A DNA stretch of 64,000 nucleotides from Thermoplasmatota archaeon (GTDB taxonomy: Archaea; Thermoplasmatota; E2; DHVEG-1), in assembly GCA_030619765.1 (NCBI GenBank), contig JAUXAU010000007.1, forward strand, positions 465-64,464. Direction: 5' to 3'. Below, one piece after another: positions 37,301 to 55,757 of this stretch; positions within the stretch are counted from its first letter, which is position 1, and each line of letters opens with the position of its first letter. The notes beneath the pieces are model-generated. The model did not search any database. It saw only the letters and a list, made by a program, of their open reading frames with translations, and was not told the origin of the DNA. Position numbers and translations under genes: made by a program.

Positions 37301-37872
37301 AAATTACTAAACTCATTGATGAAATCGTAAAAGGGGAAAGTGAAACAATATCTCTTAAGGATTACAATATTGTACTTGAAGAAATTAAAATAACAGCGGC
37401 AAACAACCTAGAAAACGTGACCCTTAATATCAAAACACTCGAAGAAAAACCAACCAATGCAATAGCACCAAGTAAAACAGTCTATATGTACATAGACATA
37501 GAAATCAATACTGAGGCAACTGACCTTTCTCTAGTGACAATTACATTCAAAGTCGAACAATCATGGTTTGAGGACAACCATATAGATAAAAAAACAGTCA
37601 TGTTACTGAGATATCATAATAATAGCTGGCAAGAGTTCACAACGACAAAGACTGATGAAGATGATCTCTATGTATATTATGAAGTAGAAATACCAGGATT
37701 CTCAACATTTGCTATCGTTGGAAGTGAAATTTCTGGAAAGGATATCGCAGAGGTTCCACTGACATGGGTCATCGCCATTGTAGGTATAATAGCAGTAATA
37801 ATCATATTTATCATTATTCTCTTCAAAAAAGGATATATTTATATCGAAGAAGAGCATAAAGATGAACCGTAG
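34303..37872 (+). CDS. Surface protein with FlgD-Ig-like domain, repeated Ig-like modules and a C-terminal PGF-pre-PGF domain plus TM anchor
   Basis: The ATG at 34303 is preceded by GAGGTGA. Signal peptide present. There are four modules of about 95 aa (DT..P..LS[IL]S[IV]N.G..YT....V.LT..A.GA..M..SN...FSGA.WE.Y). VYMYIDIEI...ITFKVEQSWFEDNHIDKKTVMLLRYHNNSWQEF...YYEVEIPGFSTFAIVG is the PGF-pre-PGF signature, followed by a TM helix. Confidence 0.85.
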   Translation: MKRNQKTLTIILSSLLILHIFMVIPSIAITPSSSDISPSIFSPGDGNGLNDTTTITITFTSSQTLYVNIFNDQSELIAEDRVMAESPSGTYKYTWNGKNESDGYVSEGTYTIRVSDNPAQNGDTIGTVEVDTTPPSSQSLSINGGTTYTTSRYVNLTIGATGATKMKVSNYLNFSGATWETYSTSKTNWALSSSSGDGVTQTVYINFRDVAGANVSTYDSIELDTVAPDASLSINSGNSSTNDLNVTLTITASDATHMKIDNDTNFFNMTSWITKANTYDFTLPSGADGSKTVYLRVKDSASNVYTTSDSITVDTQVPTNLSLSVNNGASYTNITNVTLTLSASGGPSKVYISNDGSNWTQYNYTTSLSWVLTSSEGTKYVYYKAADGAGNNATAISATIALDTTAPSAVTLSSPADGATVTTQTPTFSWSDPNTQGTKNFYITISQSGNVVDSGTLNSSTKTYTSGTLSAGTYSWKVKVFDMANNSAVTSQRSFTISVSGLAIPSPQYPTSEAYVNDTTPRLRWSQVTGAGTINYDYKYGNSSTNLTNTGSTTSLYADTVDYNHGDTVYWSVRARNTTHQSNYSSVRSFTIDTQPPTSLSISVNSGASYATSTSVTLTLSATGATYMMISNNTNFSGASWESYATTKSWTLSSTDDTKTVYFKAKDNAVGDQGSTAYANIASAVSDTIILDTSAPTVTPQSPSSGSTITTTNPTIRATLSDTGSGINTSAVTMTLDGASVTPTNITEALVRYVSSTISTGLHSVSVAATDYAGYTGYGNWTFTISSGGGGSPSPGGTPGVIPATYSSSISVSHEPTTITNSDTVNISVVLSAFSADVISVDLFWNDGIDHSKQMTLQTGTTYSATLGPFPEGITVTYYALVLDNDSQETSSSTFSFTIEDYNGPTISIVSPADGSKITDRTPTIKATYSDTGGIDTSSVKLTFNDDVTSNAIITATTVTYVPSNPLSYSTHTVTLEVADNLGNTATKTWSFTISPEEIEITKLIDEIVKGESETISLKDYNIVLEEIKITAANNLENVTLNIKTLEEKPTNAIAPSKTVYMYIDIEINTEATDLSLVTITFKVEQSWFEDNHIDKKTVMLLRYHNNSWQEFTTTKTDEDDLYVYYEVEIPGFSTFAIVGSEISGKDIAEVPLTWVIAIVGIIAVIIIFIIILFKKGYIYIEEEHKDEP

Positions 37873-39929: not shown

Positions 39930-42833
39930 ATGAATAAAAATGACAAATTAATAGTAGTAATTGGAGTTTTGGTATTTGTTATTGCATCGATTGGAATATA
40001 TACGTGGAAACCTATGGAAACAACGGTAAGTGCCTTGTCCACTGATGAATTTTTTAGTATTTCTGGTAGTCTTTCGTATGTACCTGATGCAATAGCTGTT
40101 TCAGATTCAGACCCGTTTTATGCATTGATAGCAACTCCACTAGCAGTTCATTATGACCAGGAGGGGAACCAAAAAATTATTCCACTTTATATTCAAAATT
40201 TTAGTACCCCTTCCCAAGCTGTTGAGAAGGCAATACATCAAATTGGAAGCGTTAATGAATTTATTGATACTTCTAAATCTGCAGAAGAATGGTCCTTAGA
40301 AATTGCAAAAAAGTACTGGGAGAGTAGTGATGCGGTTCTTCTAATAGAAGACAATGAATCTGGATATAACCTTGGAGTTGCAGCTAGTCCCATTGCCTCA
40401 TACTTAGGCATACCTATTATTGTTGTTGATGAACTTGACCTTGATGTAAAAGAAGTTCTTGAAGATCTTGGTGTTAAATATTCGCTTGTTTGTGGAGACA
40501 TAGAGGGGCATAGAAAAACTTTGAAATTTGATGATTTTGATGAAATCCTTAACGCTTCCATTGAGTTAGTTATGCAAAAATTTGGTGATGTTGAATATAT
40601 AACTCTCACAAACCCAAGGGATGCTTGGCCGCCAGAGGTTCTTGATGAAGAAATTGTCCTTTCTGAAAACGGAGAACTAACATCAACTGCTCTTTTTCCA
40701 TCAAATCTTCTTAACGCAATGAAAGGAATGTTGAAGCCAACAAGTTTTTCTGTTAAAATCCCTGAGGATTACAAATATGCCTTAGTCAAAATGGATTTCA
40801 GAAACCTTGAGAATCCTGAACACATTGAAAAATTTGGTGACAGTGTCATGTTTAGTGGTAGCTTAACAGGTTATCTGCGTACAACAGCTTATCCTGCAAA
40901 AAGAGATGCAAATGGAAACGTAGAAGAGGATAGATTATACTTTGAAACAGTAATCTATGATATGGGAGGAGAGGAATACGAAATAAGCCTTACAGGTATT
41001 TATAATGTTCTTGATTCTGCGGAATTTGAACTAACTATCACTGTTGAAGAACTTAGCAATCCATATTATCCGATGATGAAGCAATTCTCCTCAATTGCAC
41101 CTTATCTTACTGCTTATCACAAAGGCATTGTTTTTGCTAATCCAGAGTTTGCTTTTGCACCAACAGACGATGTGAAACTCAATGGTAAAACATTACCGGG
41201 TAATACACAGGTATTCTATAACCCAATGTTAATACCTGTTATAAATCAGCATGTTTATGAAAACATACATGTACCACTTAACAAACTTCTGGCAAAAATC
41301 ACAGATATCGATACCACTGAATCTGTTGAATATCTGAAAAAAGACTGCTATCAGGACCCGTTCTATATTGCACTTGCCGGCGATACAATTATGCTACCGC
41401 AGTATTATTATCGTAGCCCACATAATGATCCATTTGAACATCCTTCAAGAGGAGCATATGGTACTAATTGCCCAAGTGATTTTATTTATGGAAACATAGA
41501 TCCTGAAATATATTCTATTTTACCTTACGATTCAGATCATTTAGAAAATGATCTTTATTCAGAGTTCCCCGAGGTGGAAAACATAGTCGGACGAATAACT
41601 GGTTGGGATGTACAAGATGCCAGTGCTCTGATAGCGAGAACGATCTTTTACGATAAAGTAATCGATGAGTTAGATTCTTGGAAGGATAATGCAGCGGTTC
41701 TGGTTGGTGCTGGTACTGAGGTGCAGAGATTACCTGTTTTTAACACTATTCAAAAAATCCTGGGTCGGACTGATCCAATGAAGTTTCCAACTGGAGAAAA
41801 ACGTTTCCTTGTAAAACGAATAAAAAATAATTTTGAACAAGGTGGTTTTAATGCACAAAGTGCTGAGCGTGGGGCAGCACAGAGAGTAGGCCTTAGCGTT
41901 GAAGCACTCAGAGAACTTAATAAAGATGGGATTCTAAATCGTCTTTTCTTCCCATGGATGCGTGTAAAATTCCGACAAGGTATAGAAAACATAGAATCAT
42001 TCAAAGATCCTGAATGGTGGATAAAAACAATATTTGGTGATAGTTCAGAACTAGTAATAGGCGGAGAACTAGAACAGAACAGTAATTTAATCATTTCTGA
42101 TTCTCATGCCATATGGTTTGAAAAAGAATCCGGTGATATTTTGATGCATAGTCTTGGAGGACCATTTTATGAAATTTTCGCTCGTTACATTCCACTAATA
42201 CCAGGGTTTAGATCACCCCTTGATGGTCTTGGGGCATATACCGTAAGAGATGTACCTAATATGGATATGGGACCATCGGTTATGCTTATTGAAGGATGTG
42301 GATCTGGAAAAATTGACGGATTCCTGCCAATTAACTCTCTTGCTAATGCATATCTTCATGCTGGTGTAAATGCTTATATCTCTCCAACAACATTTTCAGC
42401 GTTTTATGGAGCTCTAGAACCACGTCCAAACTTCAATGGTGGAGTAGGATTTGGAATAGTTGGTTATCTCAAAGCCTGGTATGAATGGAAATTTAAAGGA
42501 GAATATCCACCAGTATGTTTTAACCAGGTCATCTTTGAACATACCATATTAGAAATGGCCAAGGACAATGTAAGCATTGGGACAGCCCTACGAGATGCAA
42601 AAAATATTTTTCTACCAGAAACGTTTTATGATGAATTCAGATGGAAACCCGTTCTATCAATTCCTTCCAATTTACCAGATTATTTAAGAGAAGATATACA
42701 AAATAGAATGAAAACAACAGCAAGCGGAGGATTGGATCATCATCCTGTGGAAAAATATTGCACTGTTTATCAGATAAATCTCCTAGGAGACCCAGCCTTC
42801 AACCCATATGAACCTATCAACGAAGGTAGGTAA
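39930..42833 (+). CDS. Membrane-anchored large protein with a C-terminal caspase-fold cysteine peptidase-like region (C25/gingipain-like)
   Basis: N-terminal TM anchor. Candidate catalytic dyad in beta-strand contexts: NLIISDSHAIW and SVMLIEGCGSGK. The assignment rests on pattern only. Confidence 0.4.
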   Translation: MNKNDKLIVVIGVLVFVIASIGIYTWKPMETTVSALSTDEFFSISGSLSYVPDAIAVSDSDPFYALIATPLAVHYDQEGNQKIIPLYIQNFSTPSQAVEKAIHQIGSVNEFIDTSKSAEEWSLEIAKKYWESSDAVLLIEDNESGYNLGVAASPIASYLGIPIIVVDELDLDVKEVLEDLGVKYSLVCGDIEGHRKTLKFDDFDEILNASIELVMQKFGDVEYITLTNPRDAWPPEVLDEEIVLSENGELTSTALFPSNLLNAMKGMLKPTSFSVKIPEDYKYALVKMDFRNLENPEHIEKFGDSVMFSGSLTGYLRTTAYPAKRDANGNVEEDRLYFETVIYDMGGEEYEISLTGIYNVLDSAEFELTITVEELSNPYYPMMKQFSSIAPYLTAYHKGIVFANPEFAFAPTDDVKLNGKTLPGNTQVFYNPMLIPVINQHVYENIHVPLNKLLAKITDIDTTESVEYLKKDCYQDPFYIALAGDTIMLPQYYYRSPHNDPFEHPSRGAYGTNCPSDFIYGNIDPEIYSILPYDSDHLENDLYSEFPEVENIVGRITGWDVQDASALIARTIFYDKVIDELDSWKDNAAVLVGAGTEVQRLPVFNTIQKILGRTDPMKFPTGEKRFLVKRIKNNFEQGGFNAQSAERGAAQRVGLSVEALRELNKDGILNRLFFPWMRVKFRQGIENIESFKDPEWWIKTIFGDSSELVIGGELEQNSNLIISDSHAIWFEKESGDILMHSLGGPFYEIFARYIPLIPGFRSPLDGLGAYTVRDVPNMDMGPSVMLIEGCGSGKIDGFLPINSLANAYLHAGVNAYISPTTFSAFYGALEPRPNFNGGVGFGIVGYLKAWYEWKFKGEYPPVCFNQVIFEHTILEMAKDNVSIGTALRDAKNIFLPETFYDEFRWKPVLSIPSNLPDYLREDIQNRMKTTASGGLDHHPVEKYCTVYQINLLGDPAFNPYEPINEGR

Positions 42834-42880: not shown

Positions 42881-43495
42881 TCATTTTTTATTCACTTTCT
42901 TCTTATAAAATAGAGCTCCAAGAATTAACAGAGTTATTACCGTAGCTGCTATAAAAATGTAATATATGTTATAATAATTTGAGTTGGGATTAGTATTAGG
43001 AAGGTTATTAATTGCCGTTTTATAGGGAGTATCTATATACACTCGAATTGCATATTCGTATTCAAAGACGCCTCCGTCAGTTTTATGTTCATCTAGTTGA
43101 AAGGTAACCCATGTTTCCCAATGTTGATCCAGTAGTTCTTCTTTTTTTGGGATACCCAGGTAGATATAAAACATTCCAGCACTTGCTGGTGGAATTACTA
43201 GCCATTTTGGTTCTAAATCAACCCAGGATAGATCAGGTATAAATGTTCTATGGGGTCTCAGATAGGAGTTAGGATTTGGATGTTCGAGATACCATGTTAC
43301 GTTAATACTGTAATCGTTGTTGTTTGTTATTGTTATCTTTTTTGAAGTGTTATCGAGTATGAACTCCTTATCCATCGTTATCGTTAGTTCTAGCGGATCA
43401 ACAGCTATAGTTGCATTGCCAAGCGTAGAAAAAAATAAGGACGTTAATAATAGTATGGGCAAAACAGATGTTTTTTTCATATAACATGTCTCCAT
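42881..43495 (-). CDS. Ig-like (PapD/DUF916-reminiscent) secreted protein with C-terminal TM anchor, paralog of 46132-46845
   Basis: Signal peptide. VDPLELTITMD...ITITNNNDYSINVTW...IPDLSWVDLEPKWLVIPPASAGMFYIYLGIPKKEELLDQHWETWVTFQ. C-terminal helix IFIAATVITLLILGALFYKKK. Confidence 0.6.
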   Translation of the reverse strand: METCYMKKTSVLPILLLTSLFFSTLGNATIAVDPLELTITMDKEFILDNTSKKITITNNNDYSINVTWYLEHPNPNSYLRPHRTFIPDLSWVDLEPKWLVIPPASAGMFYIYLGIPKKEELLDQHWETWVTFQLDEHKTDGGVFEYEYAIRVYIDTPYKTAINNLPNTNPNSNYYNIYYIFIAATVITLLILGALFYKKKVNKK

Positions 43496-43505
43496 GTTTC
43501 AGTTT

Positions 43506-45677
43506 TTATCCTTGTCTAGAGAGGAGTTCGTCTACCTGTTCTTCTATGTCGCCTATGTTTTTTAATTTACTCGTTTTTTCCCCGGGTGTTGTTGTTTCCT
43601 TCTCTCCTTCAATTACGGTGTATTCGATTTTATCTTCTATTTGACGGAGTTGTTCCATGTAAACTTCTACATCTTGTTGTATATTTTGTAGTAGGTTCTT
43701 CGTTTGACTGATCATTTCTACTGTATCTTTATCACTGACACGTGTTCTTAAGGATTCCCTAATCGATGGAGGTTTAATAATCTCTTCACGTTTTTTAAAT
43801 ATCTTATATTTCAAATAGTTATATCTTTTAAAGTATATGGAAATAATTAATATGATGAACAGTATCACTATGGTTATAGGTATCCAGATAATAAGTGGTA
43901 ATATTTCTTCTTCGTAAGGGGACATAGATCCATCTACTGTGTTGTAGATGTAATCCCATGTGCCATCTCCGTTTTTATCGATGAGATAGTGTTCATTGTG
44001 TTTTTCTACTGCTGTTGTGGTATCGCTTATGGGTTCGTAGAGGATGTCGTAGACGCCATCTTGGGTTACATCTACGAGATAGTATGTTTTTCCAGTGATG
44101 TAAACTTTTTTTGCATCCGATCCATTCTTTGGATTTGATCCAAGACGTGTTTCGTTTACATCTCTGAGGTTGTCATCATCGTCGTCTACATCTCCTGTGT
44201 ATTTTCCGGATGGTGCATCCTCATCTGGTATGTTATCGCCATCTGTATCAGTTGGGTAACTGTTCGGGTCCTTTGTATCTGTTTCATAGGATATTTCCAT
44301 GTCGTCGTTATAGCCGTCATTGTCATCATCGGTATCCGAAGAATCAGGTATGCGATCGTTATCTATGTCTAATGGATAGTTATCTAGGTCATTTGGATCG
44401 GTACCATATTGTTGTTCCTCTTCATCTGACCATCCATCTCCATCTGTGTCTATGAACATGGTGTCAATTGAGAATGTAACAGTGGCGTATCTGTTCGTTG
44501 TGTTGTCAGTGCCTAATGCTCTTACATAGAATGTGTGAACGCCATCTGAAATATTATTTGGTGATGTCCAGCTTGTTGTTTCGCCGACATATGTTTCTGA
44601 ACTATTGTCTATTTTGACATAGTATCCTTTCACGCCTTTGCTATATACTGAGGGACTCCAGGCAAATGAAGGCGTATCATCCCACATTGTGGTAACATGT
44701 CTTACATCGGCAGGTAATGTTATTTCATCTGGGAGTATCATAGAGGTTAGCGGATATCTATCAGTATTTTCCTCAGATATTGTATACGGTGTGTCCCCAA
44801 GTCCATCTCCATCTATATCTATACCTGAGTATTTGTCCCAATAGTTTCCTTTGAAGCCGTTATCCCATGTGTTGTTGCCTTGAGCGTTTGCGTCTACATC
44901 GTTTTTCCAGAAGTTGTTAAGATAGGCAAGATTATTATTTGAGTTTTGCCAGATATAGATACCTAAGTCATTAACATAAATATTACAATTAGATACTAGA
45001 TTGTCATATGATTCAATGCGAATGTCAACAGCAATTTCGTTGTTAAATATGTTACAGTTTATTATCTCATGGTCATGAGATCCTATTAGAACTAAAACAC
45101 CAACAGTGAATCCATATATGTTACAATCCTTAATTATATTGTTTTGTTCTTGCAACTCGATGCCAGTACCGGTTGAACCAATTCCGACAATGTCACAATT
45201 GGAAACAACGACAGAGGAAGCTCTTATGCGAATGCCAATATTTTTCTGGGCGGCTTCTATAATTACCTGAGAGATATTACACCAATCACTATCCGGTTTA
45301 ACATATATCGCATATTCCCCTGGATTGGTCAATTTAAGATTACGGATATCCACATTTGAACTATCTAAGATGAAGCCGTTATTGCCTCCGCAGTCGATTA
45401 TGGTACTGGCTTGGTTATCTCCGACTATAGTTAATTTTTTATGTATCTCTATGTTGTTTTCTCTATAGACGCCTTCTTTTATTCCAATAATGTCATTTGG
45501 GTTGGCGTTGTCGATAGCATCCTGAATGCTGGTGTAATCTCCATTTCCATTGATATCAACTATTAAAGTTGCTTGAGGTATAGGAGGAACGGATTGTACT
45601 GTGGATGAAAGAGTTGTGAATATGAATAAGAACGTTGCTAAGAGAGTAATTACTTGGACTCCTAGTTTCCTGTTCAT
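43506..45677 (-). CDS. Beta-helix adhesin-like protein with TSP3-like Ca-binding Asp repeats, TM helix and a cytoplasmic coiled-coil tail
   Basis: Signal peptide. GDYTSIQDAIDNANPNDIIGIKEGVY plus PbH1-like turns. DTDGDGWSDEEE / DIDNDRIPDSSDTDDDNDGYNDD / DTDGDNIPDED. TM LPLIIWIPITIVILFIILIISIYF, then about 100 charged residues. Confidence 0.8.
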   Translation of the reverse strand: MNRKLGVQVITLLATFLFIFTTLSSTVQSVPPIPQATLIVDINGNGDYTSIQDAIDNANPNDIIGIKEGVYRENNIEIHKKLTIVGDNQASTIIDCGGNNGFILDSSNVDIRNLKLTNPGEYAIYVKPDSDWCNISQVIIEAAQKNIGIRIRASSVVVSNCDIVGIGSTGTGIELQEQNNIIKDCNIYGFTVGVLVLIGSHDHEIINCNIFNNEIAVDIRIESYDNLVSNCNIYVNDLGIYIWQNSNNNLAYLNNFWKNDVDANAQGNNTWDNGFKGNYWDKYSGIDIDGDGLGDTPYTISEENTDRYPLTSMILPDEITLPADVRHVTTMWDDTPSFAWSPSVYSKGVKGYYVKIDNSSETYVGETTSWTSPNNISDGVHTFYVRALGTDNTTNRYATVTFSIDTMFIDTDGDGWSDEEEQQYGTDPNDLDNYPLDIDNDRIPDSSDTDDDNDGYNDDMEISYETDTKDPNSYPTDTDGDNIPDEDAPSGKYTGDVDDDDDNLRDVNETRLGSNPKNGSDAKKVYITGKTYYLVDVTQDGVYDILYEPISDTTTAVEKHNEHYLIDKNGDGTWDYIYNTVDGSMSPYEEEILPLIIWIPITIVILFIILIISIYFKRYNYLKYKIFKKREEIIKPPSIRESLRTRVSDKDTVEMISQTKNLLQNIQQDVEVYMEQLRQIEDKIEYTVIEGEKETTTPGEKTSKLKNIGDIEEQVDELLSRQG

Positions 45678-45862
45678 TTCTTCTCCCCCTCTTTTTTCTT
45701 TTTTGTTCCCATGGTCCTTAGGAGTCCTTTTTCAGTTAGGTAGATTAGGACCATGTTTTTGACTACTTCAGCCTCAGAGTTTCCTAGTACACCTACTTGT
45801 TGTTTTATTATATCCCGGATAATTGGGGGGAAACCGACAGGAAATCTCTGAATCTTGCCCAT
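45674..45862 (-). CDS. Ribbon-helix-helix (CopG/Arc-like) transcriptional regulator
   Basis: 62 aa. It has a beta-strand (RFPVGFP), helix 1 (PIIRDIIKQQVGVLG), helix 2 (SEAEVVKNMVLIYLTEKG) and a basic tail. It is ATGA-coupled to the adhesin gene, with a repeat array directly upstream. Confidence 0.6.
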   Translation of the reverse strand: MGKIQRFPVGFPPIIRDIIKQQVGVLGNSEAEVVKNMVLIYLTEKGLLRTMGTKKKKEGEKK

Positions 45863-45865
45863 GTG

Positions 45866-45943
45866 TGAATCACATATGAATCACTTATTTAAATATTTTT
45901 TTATCATATCTGAATCATATATGATTCATATATGATTCATATA
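45866..45943. promoter_or_regulatory. Operator-like array: five TGA[AT]TCA[CT] octamers at 11-bp phasing flanking an A/T-rich TATA-like segment
   Basis: TGAATCAC-ATA-TGAATCAC (45866-45884). TGAATCAT-ATA-TGATTCAT-ATA-TGATTCAT-ATA (45911-45943), including the perfect 18-bp palindrome TGAATCATATATGATTCA (45911-45928). Confidence 0.7.
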
Positions 45944-46131
45944 AGGAGAAAAATTTAAAATATAGAATCAAATAACATTATTGGGCAAAATTAAATCAAA
46001 ATCACAATAATCTTCTGCATTATAGTGTATGAAAAGATATGATTTGATAAAGTATTACATAATTTTAAAAAAAGACATATATTATGACGAATAATATATT
46101 TTATTACATGGAACATCTAAACCTGTTTTGT

Positions 46132-46845
46132 TCACAATTTATAGTGAGGCGGAAAAGGATTGTTTTTTTGAGATTCAAGTTTTTCTTTCTCAACGTTACT
46201 CTCTTTTTTCTTTTTAACATAAAAAATAGCTGATTTATCAGCCTTAATATTTCTTTTCTTTTTAACATACAAAAAAGCCGCAGATAATACCATCAAGCAT
46301 GTGATAATACCTAATATTGGGTACAGGATATGTGGTGCGGGTAGTGTCCACGATATCATTGTGCCCGTTGGAGTATGAATAAGGAGTCTTACAGCAAGCT
46401 GCAATTGAATTAATGTCCCTCCTCCAGAGAAATAAGAGAGTCTAGGTGTTACGATGACCCATACCTCCCAGCTTTCGTTATAATGCAACATTTTTTTATT
46501 TTCAGGTATATTTATAAACACTTCAAATTCTTTATAAGAGTTGGCAGGGATATCTAAAGTATCAGGCAATATTTCAATCCATGATAAATCTGGTATCATC
46601 GTATAATTCTCTTTCATATCATATGGGTGTATTACTTTTGAATATGCTGTGATATCCCAAGCAAAAGGATTAGTAACCTTGATTTTATACTGAATTTCTT
46701 TTTCAGGGTAATCCTCAATGGTAATAATTAATTCTGCTGGAGATACCTTTACTCCACTTTTTACACATGGAGAAATCAATAGAATAATGTTTCCAACTAA
46801 AAACAGAAAAAGTAGAAAAATCAGTGTTTGCTTTTTCACATCCAT
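46132..46845 (-). CDS. Ig-like secreted protein with C-terminal TM anchor and Lys-rich tail, paralog of 42881-43495
   Basis: VSPAELIITIEDYP...IKVTNPFAWDITAY...IPDLSWIEILPDTLDIPANSYKEFEVFINIPENKKMLHYNESWEVWVIVT aligns by eye with the 204-aa protein. Confidence 0.6.
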   Translation of the reverse strand: MDVKKQTLIFLLFLFLVGNIILLISPCVKSGVKVSPAELIITIEDYPEKEIQYKIKVTNPFAWDITAYSKVIHPYDMKENYTMIPDLSWIEILPDTLDIPANSYKEFEVFINIPENKKMLHYNESWEVWVIVTPRLSYFSGGGTLIQLQLAVRLLIHTPTGTMISWTLPAPHILYPILGIITCLMVLSAAFLYVKKKRNIKADKSAIFYVKKKKESNVEKEKLESQKNNPFPPHYKL

Positions 46846-47214
46846 CCTCCTTTACAAAGAACCAATTATCTAAAAAGAAGAAGGATTATTTGTTTTTAAA
46901 ATTTTCTAAAGTATGCATTCTCATAGGATTCTCTCATACTGTGAATGTACAGATCGTATGTGATATAGGGATTAATTGGAAAAATGAAAATCGTATCAAA
47001 TGGGTTCGCTGGAGTTTTTGATTCTCACTTAAGGATTCATTATTATTTTCCACATCAACATCATCAATTGTTACATGAACGTATTCTGGCTTTAAAAAAG
47101 ATATTTAGAATACTGAAAAGGTGTAAACCTTGTTTTTTAAAGTTTGAAAAAAAGAAAAAATATGATTTAAGGATGGAAGCTTCCTTTTTTAAAATCCATC
47201 ACTCATCATATTGC

Positions 47215-47727
47215 TTATGATAGTATTCCTGTTATATTTATTCTGGTTGTCTGCCAACCAAAATCTGAAGATCCGACTCCTAATTCCAAATTAATACCAA
47301 ATGTAAGAGTACCGCCACCGCCGACTAAGTCATTGGTCCAAGAGGTATTAGTGTTGGTGATCTGTTGAGCATTGCTCCCTGTAACATTTAGGCAAAACTG
47401 ATCTAGTCCAGGACTACCTGTATTTTCAAGGGTCAGGTCACCGTTATCTGTAGTAGTGTTACTAAAGATAAATATATCAGCTGTTACAGTGCCATTGTTG
47501 TAAAGCGTATAAGAGGTATCAGTACCTCCCTCGGTAGGCCAATTAGTTGAGGAGCTAAAAACGACCGTGCTAAAATTAGCTGTATCTGGAGTTACATCTA
47601 AGTCTATATCTCCAGAAGGATTAAAAGTTACTGTAATATAATCCTCAGATGCGCCAAGAACGACTGGTGTGATAGCCGTGATCAATATAGCTACAGTTAT
47701 TAAAACATATATTTTCTTAATTTCCAT
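47215..47727 (-). CDS. Small secreted beta-rich protein (170 aa), candidate fibre or matrix subunit
   Basis: Sec-type signal (ITPVVLG/ASEDY). The mature part is Thr/Asn/Gly-rich with alternating beta pattern (ITVTFNPSGDIDLDVTP...TLTFGINLELG...TTRINITGILS). No anchor. Confidence 0.6.
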   Translation of the reverse strand: MEIKKIYVLITVAILITAITPVVLGASEDYITVTFNPSGDIDLDVTPDTANFSTVVFSSSTNWPTEGGTDTSYTLYNNGTVTADIFIFSNTTTDNGDLTLENTGSPGLDQFCLNVTGSNAQQITNTNTSWTNDLVGGGGTLTFGINLELGVGSSDFGWQTTRINITGILS

Positions 47728-47887
47728 GTTTCCATCCCATCCTTTTTTTGCATCCCATACTACCGTTCTCTCCTACGGTTAAATATAAATACATCCTTGA
47801 GTGCAAAGGTAAAATGGAGATAGTAGTTTTTATAACTTTCGCCTTTTTAGTTTTGTTAAAATAAAAGAATGTAAATTATTTAACTAT

Positions 47888-50092
47888 TTATTTATGATTT
47901 GATAAAAGTTTATCGATTTTTTTATGTATATCATCGCTTTCTTTAACTTCAGTCTTTTTGCATAGTTTTTCAGTTAATTCGATCTCTACTTCTTCATCGT
48001 TTTTCTCTGACGTATCAACTTTTTCTTCTACCGTTAATGTAAATCTGTAACTTTTTGGATAAATAAATAATACTATTAATGTTACAACAAGAATCAAGAA
48101 CAAGAGTAGCAGGAATGACAATGGCAATTCTCTCTCTTTTTCAGGTTCTTCCTCTTTATCAATAATAACAACCTTCATTGAGGAGGCATTTGTAAAATTA
48201 TCATTATCTGTAACTTTAAGGGTTACTGTATGGTTACCTGGCTGAGCATATGAATGCACTGGATTTTCCAAATATGATTTATTGCCATCACCAAAGTCCC
48301 ATGTATAATTGATTATCGTTCCATCTGGATCATAGCTCCCATTACTGCTGAAGATAATATTTTCATTAATGTATCCAGAATATGGACCATTGATTTGTGG
48401 TATTGGCAAGTGTAGTGACGGTTCGAGCTGTATTATGATTAAATTGTGAGGCTCTGAAGTTGTTATTGCTTCATCGTCGTCCTTTACCTGTAATCTAACT
48501 GAGTAATTTCCAGGTGTTGAATAATTCCAAGTGATTTTTAAGTCTTCTAACCAGTTAGTATCATATACTCCATCGTTATTAAAATCCCAGCGGTATTTAG
48601 TAATGTATCCATCTGGATCATAACTGTAATATGCATAGAAAATGAGTGTTTCATTTACAAATCCAGTATTTGGACCTGTAATATTTGCTATTGGATGCTT
48701 GTTTGGCGGTGGTGTATATCCTCCACCACCTGGTGGAGGTTGAGAAGTTGGCTCTGGTTTAGTTGTAAAATAATAAGTTGCTGTTGTATTGTAAATGCCA
48801 TCATCTACAATTACTCGCCAGTAATATAAGGTAGAATACGAGCTAGCTTGTGAGTATGTCCAATAAACAGTTGAGTTTGCAGATATATTGGTGTCGTTTT
48901 GGCGTAGAATCCATGAGCCGGTTGAGTTTTCATACCAATAAACTGTAAGGTTATCACCCTCAATGTCATGAACGTCTACATGACATATAGGTTGTAAGTC
49001 AATATGTGTATTTCTATGAGGTGGATATTCATTTGATATCGTTGGAGCACCTTGTATAGCTGTTGTAAACAAAAATGTCTCATTAACCCAGGTGCCATTA
49101 CCATAATCAGTTGCATTGACATAAACTGTATAAGTTGTATTATATTGCAAACCAGATAATGGACAGGCTTTTTGTCCAGTTATATCATTATTTGCAGAGG
49201 CATTTCCAACATCAGGATGAGTTTCAATAGTCCAGTTAAATGTATCATTTTCAGGATCTTCAATTGTAATGTAATAATATGGTGTTGCTATCGATACGTC
49301 TGTTGATTGATTTGCCGGAATTGGATTAGATATTGTAAGTGGTTGATTATCTACTGTTGTAAAATGAAAAATTGCTGTTGTGTTTTGTATCGTATCGTTT
49401 ACGATTACTTTCCAATAATAAGTTTCTGAATAATTTGTTGCTTCAGTAAAAGTCCAATAATAAGTTCCATTTGGTACCGATGAATTAGTTTGTCTTAAAA
49501 CCCAGCATCCAGTTGAATTTTCAAACCAATAAATTGTCATGAGATCTTCATCTACATCACTGACCTCAATATGACAAGTGACATTAATTGCAATATTTAT
49601 AGAAGTATTTTGAGGGTATTCATTGTTATGTATAATTGATGGTTGATTTGGCCTTGTAGCAAATACCCATGTTTCTGATCTATTCTCATATTCTGAATCA
49701 TTAGCTATTGCATACCAATAGCAAAATCTCCCTTTTATTGCTTCATTCCATACAACCGAAGCTGTTGACCAATCTGAAGGAACGTTATTGTCAACTCCTA
49801 TAAGAGCATCGTTTGAAGCATTATAGAAATAAACATCTACGAAATCTCCAGTTTCATCAAAAACATTAACACTTAGAACTACAGGGACAGGAATATCTAC
49901 AGATTCATTTGGTGGATCTGGATTTATAGGTGCAGCTGGAGGTCGATTTGGTATAGGATTAAAGGAAATCGTTATCGAATCTTCTGTTTGGCCTTTCATC
50001 GTATCGATTAAAAAAGGTGAGGTAAATGGCGCTAATAATATTGTTAAAAATAAGAACAATGTAACTGCTCTGTATGGTTTTCTTCCTTCCAT
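47888..50092 (-). CDS. Surface protein with four Ig/fn3-like modules, two PKD domains, TM anchor and a cytoplasmic tail
   Basis: Signal peptide. Modules contain D[VI].[DE][DG][DE].[LM]T[IV]YW[FY]ENSTG[CS]W[IV]LRQ. PKD motifs YSYDPDGYITKYRWDFNNDG...YSVRLQVKDDD and GSYDPDGTIINYTWDFGDG...HTVTLKVTDND. TM LPLSFLLLLFLILVVTLIVLFIY. Confidence 0.85.
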   Translation of the reverse strand: MEGRKPYRAVTLFLFLTILLAPFTSPFLIDTMKGQTEDSITISFNPIPNRPPAAPINPDPPNESVDIPVPVVLSVNVFDETGDFVDVYFYNASNDALIGVDNNVPSDWSTASVVWNEAIKGRFCYWYAIANDSEYENRSETWVFATRPNQPSIIHNNEYPQNTSINIAINVTCHIEVSDVDEDLMTIYWFENSTGCWVLRQTNSSVPNGTYYWTFTEATNYSETYYWKVIVNDTIQNTTAIFHFTTVDNQPLTISNPIPANQSTDVSIATPYYYITIEDPENDTFNWTIETHPDVGNASANNDITGQKACPLSGLQYNTTYTVYVNATDYGNGTWVNETFLFTTAIQGAPTISNEYPPHRNTHIDLQPICHVDVHDIEGDNLTVYWYENSTGSWILRQNDTNISANSTVYWTYSQASSYSTLYYWRVIVDDGIYNTTATYYFTTKPEPTSQPPPGGGGYTPPPNKHPIANITGPNTGFVNETLIFYAYYSYDPDGYITKYRWDFNNDGVYDTNWLEDLKITWNYSTPGNYSVRLQVKDDDEAITTSEPHNLIIIQLEPSLHLPIPQINGPYSGYINENIIFSSNGSYDPDGTIINYTWDFGDGNKSYLENPVHSYAQPGNHTVTLKVTDNDNFTNASSMKVVIIDKEEEPEKERELPLSFLLLLFLILVVTLIVLFIYPKSYRFTLTVEEKVDTSEKNDEEVEIELTEKLCKKTEVKESDDIHKKIDKLLSNHK

Positions 50093-50295
50093 TTCGTTTC
50101 CTTCCGATTCCTTTTAATATATTGTTAATTGATAGCACGATGCATTCTATTACTAATTGTATTTAAAGCTAATCCGTTAAAATTGCAAAATGGAGGAATT
50201 TGCGTTCTGATGAAATGACAAACTGTAAAATCACCTAAGCAATCATAAATATATATAAAAAAATATTTATATCAAAATATTATTTAATAAATTAA

Positions 50296-50694
50296 ATGAA
50301 GGATGATGACAAACAAAAAATAAGATTACACATAGTACTTACCAGTTTTTTATTTTCCTGCATCGTTATCATTGCAACCACACCATTACACGAGGCCGCT
50401 CACTGGATCATGTCAGATATTGATCCATACAGTGAACCGGTTGAATTCCATCTTTTTGACGATTTATCCTTCCAAAATGAACAACATATTCTGTCATCAT
50501 CTTTAGGATGCGTCATAATAAAAGAAACCTATCCTGGCTCCTTTAAGGATAGACCCCTATGGATAGATCCAATTCAAGAAATAATATGCATTTCCATCCA
50601 AATCATACTAACCTGTATAATCGTTTCAAAAACACTTACATTATTAATGAGCAAATGGCCGAACTTACTGAAAACATCAATACCAAATTTTTAA
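50296..50694 (+). CDS. Small polytopic membrane protein with an HExxH motif (DUF3267-like putative zincin)
   Basis: PLHEAAHWIM (HEAAH at 50389-50403) lies at the end of the first hydrophobic helix, with a further hydrophobic helix at the C-terminus. Confidence 0.5.
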   Translation: MKDDDKQKIRLHIVLTSFLFSCIVIIATTPLHEAAHWIMSDIDPYSEPVEFHLFDDLSFQNEQHILSSSLGCVIIKETYPGSFKDRPLWIDPIQEIICISIQIILTCIIVSKTLTLLMSKWPNLLKTSIPNF

Positions 50695-50789: not shown

Positions 50790-53700
50790 TTACGATACTA
50801 CAGATTTAAAGGTGACAACAAAGGACAACGGGTCAACTGTGGATGACGTGGTAGCCATGATCAAGTTCAAATCAAAAGTCTGCCAGGAACTTATGCTTAG
50901 GTTAGTGACAAAAGTATCATATGTAGTGTTGATGTTGGTCCAGCTGCCACCACCACTTTTATTATATTGAAGACTGAAATTATTAAAACCTGGAGTTGCA
51001 GTGAGATTCCATTGGAAACCAGTCGTAGAATTGGTAGCATTACTTGATTTGACTAGTATGTTTAGAGCAATGTTTCCCTCGTTTGTGAGGTTGAAATAGT
51101 AACCCGTTGTAGCGTTGGAGCTACCTATCCATACAGTTCCCTGGTTCCACTGTGATGGTGTAACATTTACGGAGATATCAATAACTGTCAAGCTATTCGA
51201 TTGTAGAGTAATTCCATCTTGATAACCGTCATTTGGAGTAACTTCACATTGCCACACATCATTAACTGAGGTTTCTTGTGATACAATTGTGTTTGTTTTG
51301 TTCTGAGACAGTGCAAGCACCTGCTCTGGAGAAAGTGCAAAATCATATATTCTGACTTCGTCTAAAGTACCATTGTAATACCTCTGTGCAGCTCCTGGAC
51401 GTCCGATGTGCATTTCATCCTGCCATGTTGAGGTATTGTATGGAAGATCGTCGCTTGTCAGGTCGTCCGAGTCAACCAAGGTACCATTTACATACATTTT
51501 CGTTATATTATTGTCAAAATCCCAGGTTACGACCACATGATACCATATATTTGGCGTTAGATTTCCTGAAAACAACCATGTGTAGTTGGCATCTGGGACG
51601 AGAGAAGGAAGCCCATCCTCATGGTCACCGTAAAAGAATGTGAAGCCCTTCAGCCCAAAACTAGTGTTGAAGTGCTGGATACTGAGATGGAATTCTTGAC
51701 CATCTGAGTCTGAATATCCGTTTTCACTGGAGCCACCTGCCCAGACAAGGAGTTGTGGCGTTGCAAATGAATCTGGCTTTGCCCATACTTCTATTGATCC
51801 TTCATTTCTGTTTATAGTTGAATTAGGAATGCCATGGATATAATCATCAATTCCATCAAATTGATATGCTCCTTTTCCATCGTAACCCATTGTTTTGTTC
51901 CAAGTAGCTCCTGATACCGTTCCATCATGTCCTTGTCCAGAATAATCTTTTGTATAGGTTGAACTACTCCCACCTTCAAATGGCATGTTCAATAACATTA
52001 TTGAAGAGCTATTTTTATACCAGTTGAAGATATTCTTTATAGGATCTCCATCGGGATCTGATGTTGACTGGTTATAACAAGTTAAATTTTCATTTGTAGA
52101 ATTTGTTCCATAAGTTGAATTAAGGATAGGTGTGGTATGTGTTGGTTTGTTGTTGATTTTTTTACATCTAGCATCAGCACTACTTGGCGGTGTTTCATCA
52201 GATGAACCAGATTTCTTCCCTATGCTATAAAACTCATAATAACCGGTATCATTTGGAAAGTCAAAGTTCCAGCTCCATGGTGAGCTGGTATCGGGGTTGT
52301 TTGCATCAGACCATATACTCCAGTTTGAACCTCCTCCCCATGTTAAGTTATCAGTCGAATATCGATACCATAACGTTACATTGTCCAAACTGGAATCTCC
52401 TGTAGCATTGATAGTCAGTGGTGATGATGTTACATTATATGGGGTGATGGTATCAACTGATGTGTTTATCGCTTCGGTCATAAAATGATACGTTTCATTG
52501 CACCAATTAGTGCCATCAGTAAGGTTTACACTCCAATAATACATAATACTGTAATTACTAAAGTTACTGTTGGTTTGTATTATGTTTACAGAACCACTAC
52601 TGGTATCAATGCTACTATTGGTTGCAAACAAAGTCCAGCTACCACTACTATTGCTATACCAGTATGCAGTAAGCGTATCGTCATCAGCATCGTCAACAGT
52701 CACATTCAATGTTGGAGTCGGGCTGATATCTGTGGAGCCATTACTTGGAAGCTCACCTGTTATTGTCGGAGCAGTATTCTGTTGCTCGCTGCTAAAATTA
52801 AGGAATGTACCGGGATTGTTTATCGTATTATAGCTTGTGTTTATCCAACTGCTGTTTCTTGCTGTGTTTGAGATGCGGACTTCATCGATTGTGCCCTTGA
52901 AAATTTCATCTGTTGATATGGACCCATTGTCCATGCTAGACCCAATTGAAAGTTTGGCTGTCCCGCTGTGGATGGTTGTTACAATAGCCTTCTCGCTATC
53001 CCATGCTCCATTGATATAAAGTATCCATTTTGATCCAGTAGATACTCCAACGAGGTAATACCATGTATTAGTGGCTAATTGTATCGCAGATATTAGTTCA
53101 TCTAAATATGTACCATCGGCTGAAATCATAATGCAAGGCTTTGTCCAGTCCATCAGATACAGAGAGTAAGATCTTTGTGGATTTGTACTATTCCAATCCC
53201 ATTTAGTCACTATTCCTGAGTACTGATTTTTAAAGTCTGTCGAGTATATCCACGCCTCGATTGTAACCGTATCAGTGATATCTAAACTCGCTGCATCAGG
53301 AGCTACTACGGCATCATCTGTACCGTCAAGAACATCAGCTCCGTTTACTTTGCCTGTTGCATTTTGATTTAAACCGCCATAAGGTGTGCCATCATTATTA
53401 TTTGCAGTTGCATCATAATGAGTTCCAGATGTCTCATTAAGGTGTTGCACCAACACATGATTAGAATCCCAAACACCAGTTATATTCTCCTGACTGCTGC
53501 ATGTAGAGTTGCCGTAATACATCCAAATCTTAGTATCACTACTACTGCTGAGGCTGGTTACATTTACCCATGCGACTAGCTCACCATTGGTGCTGTTAAA
53601 GAGCTCTATCTCATGGTTGAGCTGCGTACTATTATCAGAATATAAGACAAATGCGATATCATCACCATCATTCTGAGCATGCGATGCAAGATCAGAATCA

Positions 53701-55757
53701 GAAGAATTATACACTAATACTGGAAAGTTAATAAGATCAGCATCAACCTGTGACGAGTTGACGGTAATAAGCTTCCGGTAACCCCAATCAGAACTCCACC
53801 AAGTGCTCCCTTCAAAATCAAACACATCACTCCCATCATCAGGAGAAACTAGGTAACTAATCCGTCCTGAAGATGGTTTACAGCCACAGTCAATCTCCTC
53901 CCAACTTGGTGCCTTAAACCATATCCGTAATGTACAGGGGCTCTGTAATGTAAACGACTGAGAATAGGCAACTTGATCTAACTCTCTTAACTCAGATGGT
54001 AATTTCTTCCTTTGCATATCAATATTCTTTTCAATATGAGACACCGGCCTACCAGCACGATACACCCAGTAATTCAAAGAAACGTCATATCCTGTTGTTT
54101 TAACAACGCGTTTTTCATCATCTCCAGAATCATATAGAAGCTCAATTTTTTCACACACTAGAGCATCAGAAAACAACGGAGCAAAGATAACATCCGTTCC
54201 ATGAAGCCCATCAACAGTTCTTTCCACATAAAACCGAGTCCCAGGCACTACATCGATATGTTCTTCTTTTGGATCCACAATGGAAACAGTACTTTCATTT
54301 CCATAAATAAAAAACTGACTTATGGCAGATTTATTCTCATAACCAGGAGCAGCACACCACACCTTAAACTCATAAGTTCCACTAACATCAAACGATCTCC
54401 TGTAAACATAATAACCATTGCTGTAGTTCATACGCTTTGGCTCAGTCCAAGTTCCAACATTGAACGAAATAAGACATGTAGCATTCTCAATACTCTGATT
54501 GAAACTGCTATAATTCGCATAAAACGTAATCATATCTCCAACATATTTACTCACATTATCGGTATCATCCCAAACAAACAAATCAGATACATTCAAGGAA
54601 ACATTTCCCAAAGGTACATCTAAAACATCAAACATAAGTTCTTCTTCCACAGTCTCATTCAAATAAATAACAGTAACATTTACCACATAACTACCCGCAA
54701 CAATCGGAACAAACCGATATTCAAATAAGCCATCTGCCACATTTAAACCAACAGACAAATTAATATCAGAGCCGGCAATAAGAAGACCTGCAGATGTGTT
54801 TATCAACGAATTATTAAACGAGACAACGCCACTGATCAACACAGTTTCATTAATGACATGGACCAGCTTATCACTCTGCAAAGTAAGATTTAAACCAGTA
54901 GAAATAATTATTTCATTTTCCCCAGCAGATGTCTCATTTGTCCCTGTTTCTGAGGATTGATTTTCATCAGGGATCTCTTCAGGTAGAACACTCCATCTCA
55001 CCCCAGCAGAGTAAGGCGTGTTATTCACATCTAACCCTGTAATCGTAACAATATGCTCACCAGGCATAACGTCATAAACAAACCAAACCCCATGCCACAA
55101 ATGCAATGACGTAGTATTATCAACAAGCAACAAATCAATAATCTCAACACCTGCCATATCAGCAGATACAGAAGTAACAAAATACACATCAGGAATAGCA
55201 ACATTCACAAACATAGTATCATTATTATAGATATTTTCAGGGCTAAGAGAAATAGAAAGAACATCTATACTAGAACCACCTTGTGAAGAGAGTATAGATG
55301 CAGAGGTGATAGCGGCAAAGATCAAGAGAACCGATAACAATATAGATAGCACCTTTTTTACAGGTAATTTGATCAAACTCGAGGTTTTTTTCACCTCAAT
55401 ATTCATTAAAAAACGTTTTTTATCAGAAACTTGGCTAGAGACGGGAAGATTTTTTTTCTTTAATGTATTTTTTGAATAAGTAAAACCATTTGACTGGACA
55501 GTTAATTTCTTTGATGATGAAGCATTATTTAAAAATTGACTCCCATTATAATCTTCAGCCTTATCCTCAAGAGAAGAAACCTTTTTTTTAGCGAGAATGT
55601 AATCCACTAAATCATTGACGTTATAGCTATATTCAGCTTTTGTTTTAGCTGAAAAAAAACAATCTAAATTTTGATAGATATGGCTATCTAGTTTTTCTTT
55701 TTTATGTCTCTTATTACTCTTTATAAATTTCCCTGAGAGTGCTGAAATAATCCCCAT
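50790..55757 (-). CDS. Giant type-II-anchored surface protein (1655 aa): Ig-like region, DUF2341, two LamG/ConA-like domains and fn3-like modules
   Basis: GGAGGG sits 3 nt before the ATG. About 130 cytoplasmic residues precede the TM VLSILLSVLLIFAAITSASIL. WGYRKLITVNSSQVDADLINFPVLV...DGDDIAF...LNHEIE...VAWVNV...IWMYYGN matches DUF2341. LamG-type ends DEVRISNTARNSSWI and LDEVRIYDFALSPEQV. The module DDADDDTLTAYWYSNSSGSW is shared with the PKD protein. Confidence 0.85.
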   Translation of the reverse strand: MGIISALSGKFIKSNKRHKKEKLDSHIYQNLDCFFSAKTKAEYSYNVNDLVDYILAKKKVSSLEDKAEDYNGSQFLNNASSSKKLTVQSNGFTYSKNTLKKKNLPVSSQVSDKKRFLMNIEVKKTSSLIKLPVKKVLSILLSVLLIFAAITSASILSSQGGSSIDVLSISLSPENIYNNDTMFVNVAIPDVYFVTSVSADMAGVEIIDLLLVDNTTSLHLWHGVWFVYDVMPGEHIVTITGLDVNNTPYSAGVRWSVLPEEIPDENQSSETGTNETSAGENEIIISTGLNLTLQSDKLVHVINETVLISGVVSFNNSLINTSAGLLIAGSDINLSVGLNVADGLFEYRFVPIVAGSYVVNVTVIYLNETVEEELMFDVLDVPLGNVSLNVSDLFVWDDTDNVSKYVGDMITFYANYSSFNQSIENATCLISFNVGTWTEPKRMNYSNGYYVYRRSFDVSGTYEFKVWCAAPGYENKSAISQFFIYGNESTVSIVDPKEEHIDVVPGTRFYVERTVDGLHGTDVIFAPLFSDALVCEKIELLYDSGDDEKRVVKTTGYDVSLNYWVYRAGRPVSHIEKNIDMQRKKLPSELRELDQVAYSQSFTLQSPCTLRIWFKAPSWEEIDCGCKPSSGRISYLVSPDDGSDVFDFEGSTWWSSDWGYRKLITVNSSQVDADLINFPVLVYNSSDSDLASHAQNDGDDIAFVLYSDNSTQLNHEIELFNSTNGELVAWVNVTSLSSSSDTKIWMYYGNSTCSSQENITGVWDSNHVLVQHLNETSGTHYDATANNNDGTPYGGLNQNATGKVNGADVLDGTDDAVVAPDAASLDITDTVTIEAWIYSTDFKNQYSGIVTKWDWNSTNPQRSYSLYLMDWTKPCIMISADGTYLDELISAIQLATNTWYYLVGVSTGSKWILYINGAWDSEKAIVTTIHSGTAKLSIGSSMDNGSISTDEIFKGTIDEVRISNTARNSSWINTSYNTINNPGTFLNFSSEQQNTAPTITGELPSNGSTDISPTPTLNVTVDDADDDTLTAYWYSNSSGSWTLFATNSSIDTSSGSVNIIQTNSNFSNYSIMYYWSVNLTDGTNWCNETYHFMTEAINTSVDTITPYNVTSSPLTINATGDSSLDNVTLWYRYSTDNLTWGGGSNWSIWSDANNPDTSSPWSWNFDFPNDTGYYEFYSIGKKSGSSDETPPSSADARCKKINNKPTHTTPILNSTYGTNSTNENLTCYNQSTSDPDGDPIKNIFNWYKNSSSIMLLNMPFEGGSSSTYTKDYSGQGHDGTVSGATWNKTMGYDGKGAYQFDGIDDYIHGIPNSTINRNEGSIEVWAKPDSFATPQLLVWAGGSSENGYSDSDGQEFHLSIQHFNTSFGLKGFTFFYGDHEDGLPSLVPDANYTWLFSGNLTPNIWYHVVVTWDFDNNITKMYVNGTLVDSDDLTSDDLPYNTSTWQDEMHIGRPGAAQRYYNGTLDEVRIYDFALSPEQVLALSQNKTNTIVSQETSVNDVWQCEVTPNDGYQDGITLQSNSLTVIDISVNVTPSQWNQGTVWIGSSNATTGYYFNLTNEGNIALNILVKSSNATNSTTGFQWNLTATPGFNNFSLQYNKSGGGSWTNINTTYDTFVTNLSISSWQTFDLNLIMATTSSTVDPLSFVVTFKSVVS

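Follow-up and report, generated by a model that had tools for sequence, protein, structure and literature searches.

The locus described here offers a candidate answer to the question of how an archaeal cell might keep the unfilled subunits of a surface structure from misfolding or capping themselves. It lies in a stretch of 64,000 nucleotides (the window) from contig JAUXAU010000007.1 of a Thermoplasmatota archaeon and encodes a small secreted protein, two tethered one-domain paralogs, two larger membrane-anchored proteins, a putative regulator and a giant adhesin. The presence of prefoldin and archaellin-type genes near the locus, within the window, indicates that the host is an archaeon. 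An earlier note on this DNA had read positions 42881-50694 as an assembly module for a fibre or surface complex with strand complementation, a reading supported here by the protein folds, the gene linkage and families that lack characterised homologues. We consider it probable, with moderate confidence, that the locus encodes a surface fibre, or a short tether for the giant adhesin, built by chaperone-assisted donor-strand exchange without an usher.

The seven open reading frames (ORFs) listed in that interval were all found where the note had placed them, six on the minus strand and a 132-aa gene alone on the plus strand. The extent of the module required revision: a LamG adhesin gene at 50790-55757 belongs to it although it lies beyond the interval, and the 132-aa gene falls outside the conserved part. 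The main features are:

47888..50092, minus strand: 734-aa PKD protein (Pfam PKD_4/PKD)
49955..49987, minus strand: donor-strand-like motif of the PKD protein, TEDSITISFNP, residues 36-46 (motif search)
47215..47727, minus strand: 170-aa secreted pilin-like subunit (AlphaFold2, Foldseek and family profile)
47617..47649, minus strand: N-terminal extension of the 170-aa protein, SEDYITVTFNP, residues 27-37, a candidate donor strand (conservation)
46132..46845, minus strand: 237-aa candidate membrane-anchored chaperone (AlphaFold2 and Foldseek)
43506..45677, minus strand: 723-aa membrane-anchored beta-helix (NosD-like)/TSP3 protein (Pfam)
42881..43495, minus strand: 204-aa second PapD-like, transmembrane (TM)-anchored paralog (BLASTP and A2 profile)
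50790..55757, minus strand: 1655-aa LamG/DUF2341 giant adhesin (Pfam and A1 profile)
50838..51179, minus strand: C-terminal acceptor (pilin-like) domain of the LamG adhesin, residues 1527-1640 (hmmsearch with the A1 profile)

Here A1 is the profile of the 170-aa family and A2 that of the 237-aa family; homologous loci from other genomes or contigs are numbered L001-L027.

Folds of the small secreted and tethered proteins

The four small proteins of the locus matched no Pfam or NCBIfam family above threshold, and together with searches of the PDB this agrees with the earlier expectation that they would not fall into characterised families. The 170-aa protein consists of a signal peptide, an N-terminal extension and an Ig-like acceptor domain that runs to the C-terminus. 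It had been described as secreted, anchorless and rich in Thr, Asn and Gly, which is borne out by the signal peptide, the absence of a TM helix and the composition of the mature protein (18.6% T, 11.7% G, 10.3% N and zero lysine). The mature protein also contains six N-x-S/T sequons. The AlphaFold2 model, with a mean predicted local distance difference test score (pLDDT) of 86, has an unstructured N-terminal extension followed by an all-beta domain reaching the C-terminus. When this model was searched with Foldseek, 44 of the top 50 matches were subunits of donor-strand-exchange fibres (E 0.014-0.23), including TLP-1b, CfaB, FimA/F/G/I, CsuA/B, SafA, Caf1 and the pilin domains of PapG and FimH. 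TLP-1b is itself a donor-strand-exchange pilus (PMC11494351). The Sulfolobus thread subunit Saci_0406, one of the comparisons suggested in the earlier note, appeared at rank 46, so the proposed resemblance to such subunits was recovered, at weak scores.

An exhaustive profile search gathered 254 representative clusters of the 170-aa family, mostly 155-200 aa in length. The family has no Pfam or NCBIfam assignment, its members carry no precomputed Pfam domain or name, and sequence and profile searches of the PDB found nothing. The N-terminal extension is the most conserved stretch of the family, with V33, F35 and G39 invariant. In the monomer model this extension (mature N-terminus DYITVTFNP) is not a strand, i.e. 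it is unpaired, and it is absent from the versions of the domain that are fused to the C-terminus of other proteins.

Upstream of the 170-aa ORF, at 47743..47758 (minus strand), there is a further start, ATGGGATGC (MGC...), followed by a run of seven A residues (A7) that in the window puts it out of frame with the 170-aa ORF; this start is conserved at the DNA level in all related loci. The run has six residues (A6) in CP070724, and L001, also with A6, reads in frame as MGCKKGWDRNMEIKK. The result of the A7 run in the window is an upstream ORF of 13 codons, overlapping the MEIKK start of the 170-aa ORF, and a short MGC upstream ORF is present in L003 too. The arrangement may reflect an assembly error in the homopolymer, a tract prone to slippage or a leader peptide.

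In the 237-aa protein a signal peptide precedes one PapD-like Ig domain, after which come a TM helix and a basic cytoplasmic tail. The AlphaFold2 model of this protein (pLDDT 82) shows a single beta-sandwich and, after it, one long helix for the TM and cytoplasmic parts. The PDB structures matched by Foldseek are nearly all domain 1 of chaperones from chaperone-usher systems (E 1e-8 to 1e-6), namely FaeE, FimC, Caf1M, PapD, CsuC, SafB, SfaE and DraB, with a few other PapD-like or ASH domains below them. The top 30 matches have E values of 1e-8 to 5e-7, a probability of 1.0 and approximately 130 aligned columns, and the root-mean-square deviation to the chaperones is 3.3-6 Å. The comparison with PapD-like chaperones that the earlier note had suggested for the paralogs thus gave a positive result. 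The F-G loop is modelled with low confidence and varies in length across the family, and the G strand is conserved with an alternating pattern (QLAV[KR]L[FL]IHTP); loop and strand together are the natural candidate for a capping strand.

At the sequence level the 237-aa family, which comprises at least 197 proteins without a precomputed Pfam domain or name, gave no match to PapD_N or PapD_C even at E values up to 10 and no match to a Pam family in NCBIfam. The Cep192 PapD-like domain was matched faintly by 2 of 30 members, and sequence and profile searches of the PDB found nothing. The 204-aa protein is a paralog (30% identity, E 1e-18 by BLASTP; E 2e-53 with the A2 profile), in agreement with the relationship claimed from the motifs VxPxELxIT, IPDLSW and WE[TV]WV, which both proteins contain. 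It likewise has an N-terminal signal peptide and a C-terminal TM helix.

The cytoplasmic tail of the 237-aa protein (46132-46260) carries a motif, [IMV][FY][FY].[KR].[KRN], approximately 15 residues past the TM helix. It is found in the 237-aa family only and not in the 204-aa family, and hints at a cytoplasmic partner.

Distribution of the strand and the acceptor domain

From its N-terminus, the 734-aa protein runs from a signal peptide and an isolated strand through a Pro-rich linker, Ig-like repeats and two PKD domains to a TM helix and a charged cytoplasmic tail; the Pfam matches to the two PKD domains confirm its earlier description as a PKD adhesin. The N-terminal strand of the window protein, which resembles that of the 170-aa protein, was found by motif search. 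Long ORFs totalling 19.6 k residues contain a strict version of the motif, [ILV][ST][ILV][ST][ILVF].P, only three times, and all three occurrences are in the present locus, each just after a signal peptide. They are at the start of the 170-aa, PKD and LamG proteins; the beta-helix protein of the same locus has no such motif. A strand like that of the 170-aa protein starts the PKD protein in eight loci (the window, L001, L003, L004, L005, L006, L022 and L024), and it usually tracks the version found in the local pilin (FNP, FDP or FTP). When the homologous PKD proteins of other loci were compared with the A1 profile, only the signal peptide and the N-terminal strand matched. The PKD protein is a candidate membrane anchor or terminator.

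The 1655-aa LamG adhesin shows the converse arrangement. It has Laminin_G_3 and DUF2341 domains (Pfam); its N-terminus includes a hydrophobic segment, and its C-terminus is without a TM helix. Residues 1527-1640 align to A1 positions 54-169 (E 8e-7), and the protein ends 15 residues past this match. In such acceptor-only domains the A1 match starts at position 52-56, i.e. without the N-terminal extension. The same domain ends the large upstream proteins of L003/L014, L006 (E 3.6e-8), L017 (E 5.6e-7), L019 and L022, and acceptor-only domains are also present in P0163, P0200, L004 x279 and a 258-aa protein of L025, the L004 and L025 carriers being small two-domain proteins. Unrelated fusions, such as a papain-lectin protein, likewise end in this domain. 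It is always the end of the polypeptide, even when fused or when it contains insertions. Strand and domain occur together in the 170-aa family, the strand alone on the PKD protein and the domain alone on large secreted proteins. Searched with the A1 and A2 profiles, the window's other giant surface proteins yielded neither a 170-like nor a 237-like domain.

Upstream of the cluster in L024 (58-5330) there are three or four tandem partial ORFs, each repeating LTLNLTTGAQEWQ...VSPKHK[IV]Y. In three of them this is followed by a fragment of the C-terminal acceptor domain of the adhesin. These ORFs resemble either spare cassettes for the C-terminus of the giant adhesin or duplications of it that have decayed.

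The gene order PKD, 170-aa, 237-aa, 62-aa, beta-helix, 204-aa is also found in the chromosomes CP070724 and CP070798, the closest relatives of the window, and in three metagenomic contigs with differing flanks. A scan of species-representative genomes yielded 12 loci, of which 11 are from Thermoplasmata/Thermoplasmatales metagenome-assembled genomes (MAGs) and one (L024) is from a 'Methanobacteriota archaeon' MAG. A 237-like gene directly follows the 170-like gene in every locus with enough DNA, and in the species-representative loci the 204-like paralog lies approximately 3.5 kb beyond it. The paralog is kept in L001, L003, L004 (where it is relocated), L006, L015, L017, L021, L023, L024 and L025, and the beta-helix protein in L001, L003-L006, L017 and L022-L026. 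The distant locus L025 encodes a PKD protein, the 258-aa fusion, a 162-aa protein, a 243-aa protein (A2 E 1e-48), a beta-helix protein and a 194-aa protein (A2 E 2e-35). In L027, also distant, a 162-aa protein is followed directly by a 190-aa protein with a signal peptide, an Ig domain and a TM helix (A2 E 2e-5). The paralog and small-subunit genes, whose co-occurrence the earlier note had proposed as a check, are thus found together across related and distant genomes.

Two further observations concern these loci. In L006 the giant adhesin is separated from the PKD gene by an inserted ParE/ribbon-helix-helix (RHH) toxin-antitoxin pair and an inserted AAA_14/DUF4143 gene (6170-8287), which suggests that the cluster tolerates insertions at this junction. 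Several secreted proteins of L027 (5766-10919) begin with one to three copies of [EY]FDLGVxVTL, with Pro/Glu-rich linkers between the copies, and end in a shared motif, V[IV]IPNPxF...W. On sequence, these motifs may be a second, unrelated strand-and-acceptor code.

Proposed assembly and its rivals

Folds, gene linkage, the operator array and the way in which strand and domain are distributed are shown by the analysis; from these we infer strand exchange, its polarity, the length of any polymer and the chaperone role as follows. All components would be exported by Sec. The 170-aa protein would be the repeating subunit, its N-terminal extension plugging the acceptor domain of another subunit. 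The LamG giant would be the distal adhesin and would be attached through its C-terminal acceptor domain alone; lacking a membrane anchor, it would be held on the cell only in this way. At the other end, the strand of the PKD protein would plug the last acceptor domain, which would end growth and anchor the structure in the membrane. Until strand exchange, acceptor domains still unfilled would be capped and kept stable at the surface of the membrane by the 237-aa and 204-aa proteins. As an archaeon has no closed periplasm, it would lose a soluble chaperone by diffusion; a tethered chaperone would, in addition, hold the growing structure on the cell and so dispense with the need for an usher. 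The tethered proteins would in this way replace both the soluble periplasmic chaperone and the usher, and no usher family was found among the Pfam and NCBIfam matches of any gene in or around the locus. The 62-aa regulator would autoregulate a second operon consisting of its own gene, the beta-helix gene and the gene of the 204-aa paralog.

Several results weigh against this proposal. The Foldseek matches of the 170-aa model are weak (best E 0.014, template-modelling score 0.4-0.5), and no usher, fimbrial or Pam model in Pfam or NCBIfam was matched by the proteins or families of the locus. We do not claim sequence homology to chaperone-usher proteins, since hhalign gave a probability of 5.6% for the 170-aa family against 18 E. 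coli K-12 pilins and of 5.5% for the 237-aa family against seven E. coli K-12 chaperones. Chaperones of chaperone-usher systems have two domains, and the cleft between these contains the conserved Arg8 and Lys112. With one domain in place of PapD_N and PapD_C, the putative chaperone lacks the cleft that holds the pilin C-terminus in those systems; in the alignment to the seven E. coli chaperones, the position of PapD Arg8 corresponds to a non-basic residue. Mean-field direct coupling analysis of 149 non-redundant members of the 170-aa family (effective number 136) gave a best ladder that pairs the extension in antiparallel fashion to the beginning of the C-terminal strand, although the signal is noisy and rival ladders score about the same. 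The third occurrence of the strict motif, at the N-terminus of the LamG adhesin, blurs the assignment of tip, shaft and anchor; this could be a donor strand or no more than strand A of the first Ig domain. In L017 there is no PKD anchor beside the pilin gene. Finally, the hosts are uncultured, with no filament seen.

The closest counterpart of the locus is the Pam pilus of Candidate Phyla Radiation (CPR) bacteria (PamA/B/E/T, PamC/D and PamR), described in a preprint of June 2026 (bioRxiv 10.64898/2026.03.03.709456). PamC and PamD are TM-anchored PapD-like proteins, the system has no usher, the PamR terminator carries an extra N-terminal strand besides its Ig-type domains and TM helix, and the pilins are reported to be exclusive to CPR bacteria (bioRxiv 10.64898/2026.03.03.709456). 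Both systems operate without an outer membrane or an usher and have two PapD/FimC-like proteins, each with a C-terminal TM helix. They also share a terminator or anchor (here, the candidate PKD protein) in which an extra N-terminal strand is added to Ig-type domains and a C-terminal TM helix. In the reading proposed here, Sec-exported pilins whose Ig acceptor domain would be truncated and a tip subunit without a donor strand are further common features. They differ in that the host here is a Thermoplasmata archaeon, the chaperone-like proteins are single-domain (two-domain in PamC and PamD), the pilin consists of one domain and an N-terminal extension (in Pam, of an N-terminal sandwich, then a linker strand, then a C-terminal domain) and the distal component would be the 1655-aa LamG adhesin. 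The locus has no sequence membership in the Pam families; the sole match is that of the PKD protein to NCBIfam CPR_pilus_PamR, which is faint (E 0.011) and far below the cut-off. The earlier note recognised no named archaeal system of this composition, and our literature search likewise found none of this kind described, the similar bacterial system having been described since.

The likeness to chaperone-usher pili (Fim, Pap, Caf, Csu and CFA/I) extends from the fold of chaperone domain 1 and the pilin-like fold to an N-terminal extension with alternating hydrophobic residues and an acceptor domain that ends at the C-terminus. As in the tip adhesins of those systems, the LamG protein joins a large part to a C-terminal pilin-like domain without an extension, with its own N-terminal strand as a caveat. 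In contrast to those systems, there is no usher, no outer membrane and no detectable sequence homology (hhalign approximately 5%), the chaperone-like protein is membrane-anchored as well as single-domain, and a membrane-anchored terminator would take the place of PapH.

The main rival, which we regard as unlikely, is a static surface complex of WxL/Csc type, in which the 237-aa and 204-aa proteins would use a hairpin strand to keep both the small protein and the giant adhesin, by its C-terminal domain, permanently on the membrane, without any polymer being formed. The parts do parallel the WxL loci of Firmicutes, where a small domain-only protein and a large protein with that domain at its C-terminus accompany a TM-anchored Ig protein (WxLIP, with the order DUF916-DUF3324-TM), whose hairpin is predicted to complete the WxL sandwich by a strand (PMC10599100). 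An F-G loop of low confidence and variable length is what would be expected of an induced-fit hairpin, and WxLIP_PGBD (DUF916) is matched faintly by 2 of 30 members of the 237-aa family (best E 0.006). However, Pfam and NCBIfam searches found no WxL domain or motif, no DUF3324 second domain and no LPXTG partner, there is one Ig domain rather than two, and the host has no peptidoglycan. A static complex also leaves unexplained the conserved free N-terminal strand of the small and PKD proteins, which is missing from the fusion domains and has no counterpart in WxL systems, and Foldseek groups the 170-aa model with polymerising pilins. Of the likenesses raised in the earlier note, the one to chaperone-usher systems is better supported than the one to Csc/WxL complexes, given the absence of a WxL domain and the faintness of the DUF916 matches.

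We think it very improbable that the locus encodes a chaperone-free, self-assembling fibre of the TasA/ABP/tafi type, in which the 237-aa and 204-aa proteins would be strand-accepting membrane anchors like TafF. Sulfolobus threads, Pyrobaculum bundling pili, tafi and Pyrodictium cannulae are described as chaperone-free (PMC9715654, PMC9245690, PMC12337348, PMC12518558), as is reported for all characterised archaeal fibres of the TasA/ABP/tafi type, whereas the locus encodes two PapD-like proteins. Like the assembly proposed for the locus, archaeal donor-strand fibres have small beta-rich subunits, exported by Sec or Tat, that are joined by an N-terminal donor strand, and tafi combine a LamG tip protein (TafC) and small pilins with a TM anchor (TafF) (PMC11821415). 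The LamG protein has a sub-threshold match to TafC (E 4e-14; cut-off 410 bits), but this is confined to the LamG region. There is no match to TasA/Peptidase_M73, DUF1102 or a Taf pilin, and no DUF5305 gene or dedicated signal peptidase (SipW or TafD in systems of this type) in the locus; a TasA-like identity of the 170-aa protein was rejected on these grounds and because its fold matches are to chaperone-usher-type pilins. The 237-aa fold is that of chaperone domain 1 and not of a pilin-like domain, the A1 and A2 profiles show no cross-match, and the PKD protein already provides a separate strand-bearing TM anchor. The polarity proposed here, in which the strand comes from the anchor and is taken up by the adhesin, is also the reverse of that in tafi and TasA fibres. 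We give equally little credence to an island of independent adhesins, in which the Ig folds would be generic and the N-terminal motif a signal for processing, glycosylation or sorting. The window is rich in giant surface proteins, no sequence-level tie to any pilus family was found, Ig-like models readily match families that are over-represented in the PDB, and the LamG motif may be just strand A of an Ig domain. Such an island would not account for strict gene adjacency across deep divergence while the flanks change, for a 170-like domain that always ends the polypeptide, for the lack of the motif in the beta-helix protein or for PapD-like matches that are specific and strong.

Donor-strand exchange assisted by tethered chaperones would have several consequences. 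Its minimal parts list would be a subunit, a strand-only anchor, an acceptor-only adhesin and a tethered PapD-like cap. The proposal provides a first functional hypothesis for two uncharacterised families (254 clusters and at least 197 proteins) spread across uncultured Thermoplasmata, and suggests how anchorless giant LamG, protease and lectin adhesins stay on these cells. More tentatively, a fibre formed by chaperone-assisted donor-strand exchange in Thermoplasmata, with single-domain tethered PapD-like proteins and a strand-only anchor, could be the first chaperone-dependent donor-strand pilus in Archaea. If so, there may be an evolutionary link to bacterial chaperone-usher systems and to the CPR Pam chaperones; the chaperone principle would then predate or have crossed the bacterial-archaeal divide, and would not need an usher.

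Regulator, second operon and neighbouring genes

The remaining features of the locus are:

45674..45862, minus strand: 62-aa putative RHH autoregulator (cross-locus conservation and operator array)
45866..45942, no strand assigned: operator array, with an 18-bp palindrome TGAATCATATATGATTCA, further half-sites and a proximal GTGATTCATATGTGATTCA
50296..50694, plus strand: 132-aa small membrane protein with HEAAH (sequence)

The stop codon of the 62-aa gene overlaps the start of the beta-helix gene as ATGA, the coupling that had been described earlier, and the 204-aa gene follows 10 nt downstream of the beta-helix gene. Pfam confirmed the beta-helix/TSP3 reading of the 723-aa protein, with Beta_helix/NosD and TSP3_bac domains. 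The assignment of the 62-aa protein as an RHH regulator held in part. Its sequence has a beta-alpha-alpha pattern and its gene is preceded by a palindromic operator array, but no RHH model was matched, and searches of Pfam and the PDB gave no match of any kind even at E 10. An RHH fold is plausible from this pattern. The protein is nearly invariant across loci, with 29 columns invariant in nine loci.

The operator array upstream of the 62-aa gene consists of TGAWTCATATATGAWTCA palindromes and is kept in nine of ten loci. Its proximal site, GTGATTCATATGTGATTCA, lies between a TATA-like box and the ATG of the 62-aa gene. Upstream of the 170-aa, 237-aa and PKD genes, no operator sites were found beyond chance. 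RHH control of the whole locus, as the earlier note had it, was therefore rejected and applies to the RHH/beta-helix/204-aa operon only: as the operators have no counterpart upstream of the other genes, the 62-aa protein most likely autoregulates this second operon.

The 132-aa gene sits between the LamG and PKD genes, and its product has the HEAAH motif just after a TM segment. No family was matched in Pfam or NCBIfam. The small HExxH membrane protein noted earlier is thus present, but it is kept in the closest relatives only (a counterpart is found in L002 and L003 and not in L004-L006) and is not part of the conserved module. A role as the core processing protease is unsupported for the same reason.

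Convergent to the 204-aa gene, at 39930-42833 (plus strand), a gene encodes a 967-aa membrane protein with a Peptidase_C25 (gingipain-family) region. L001 and L003 have the same neighbour, and a C25 gene is found close to the distant cluster of L025. In the type V pili of Bacteroidetes, priming of strand exchange depends on C25 proteases. Further away, at 26541-37872 (plus strand), there are genes for a 2583-aa protein (NosD/beta-helix and CarboxypepD_reg) and a 1199-aa protein with Ig-like domains; domains of the 170-like or 237-like type are absent from both. Immediately past the LamG gene, at 57509-59354, there are two Arch_flagellin-family genes (type IV pilin or archaellin-like), which suggests that the cell also has type IV-type filaments.

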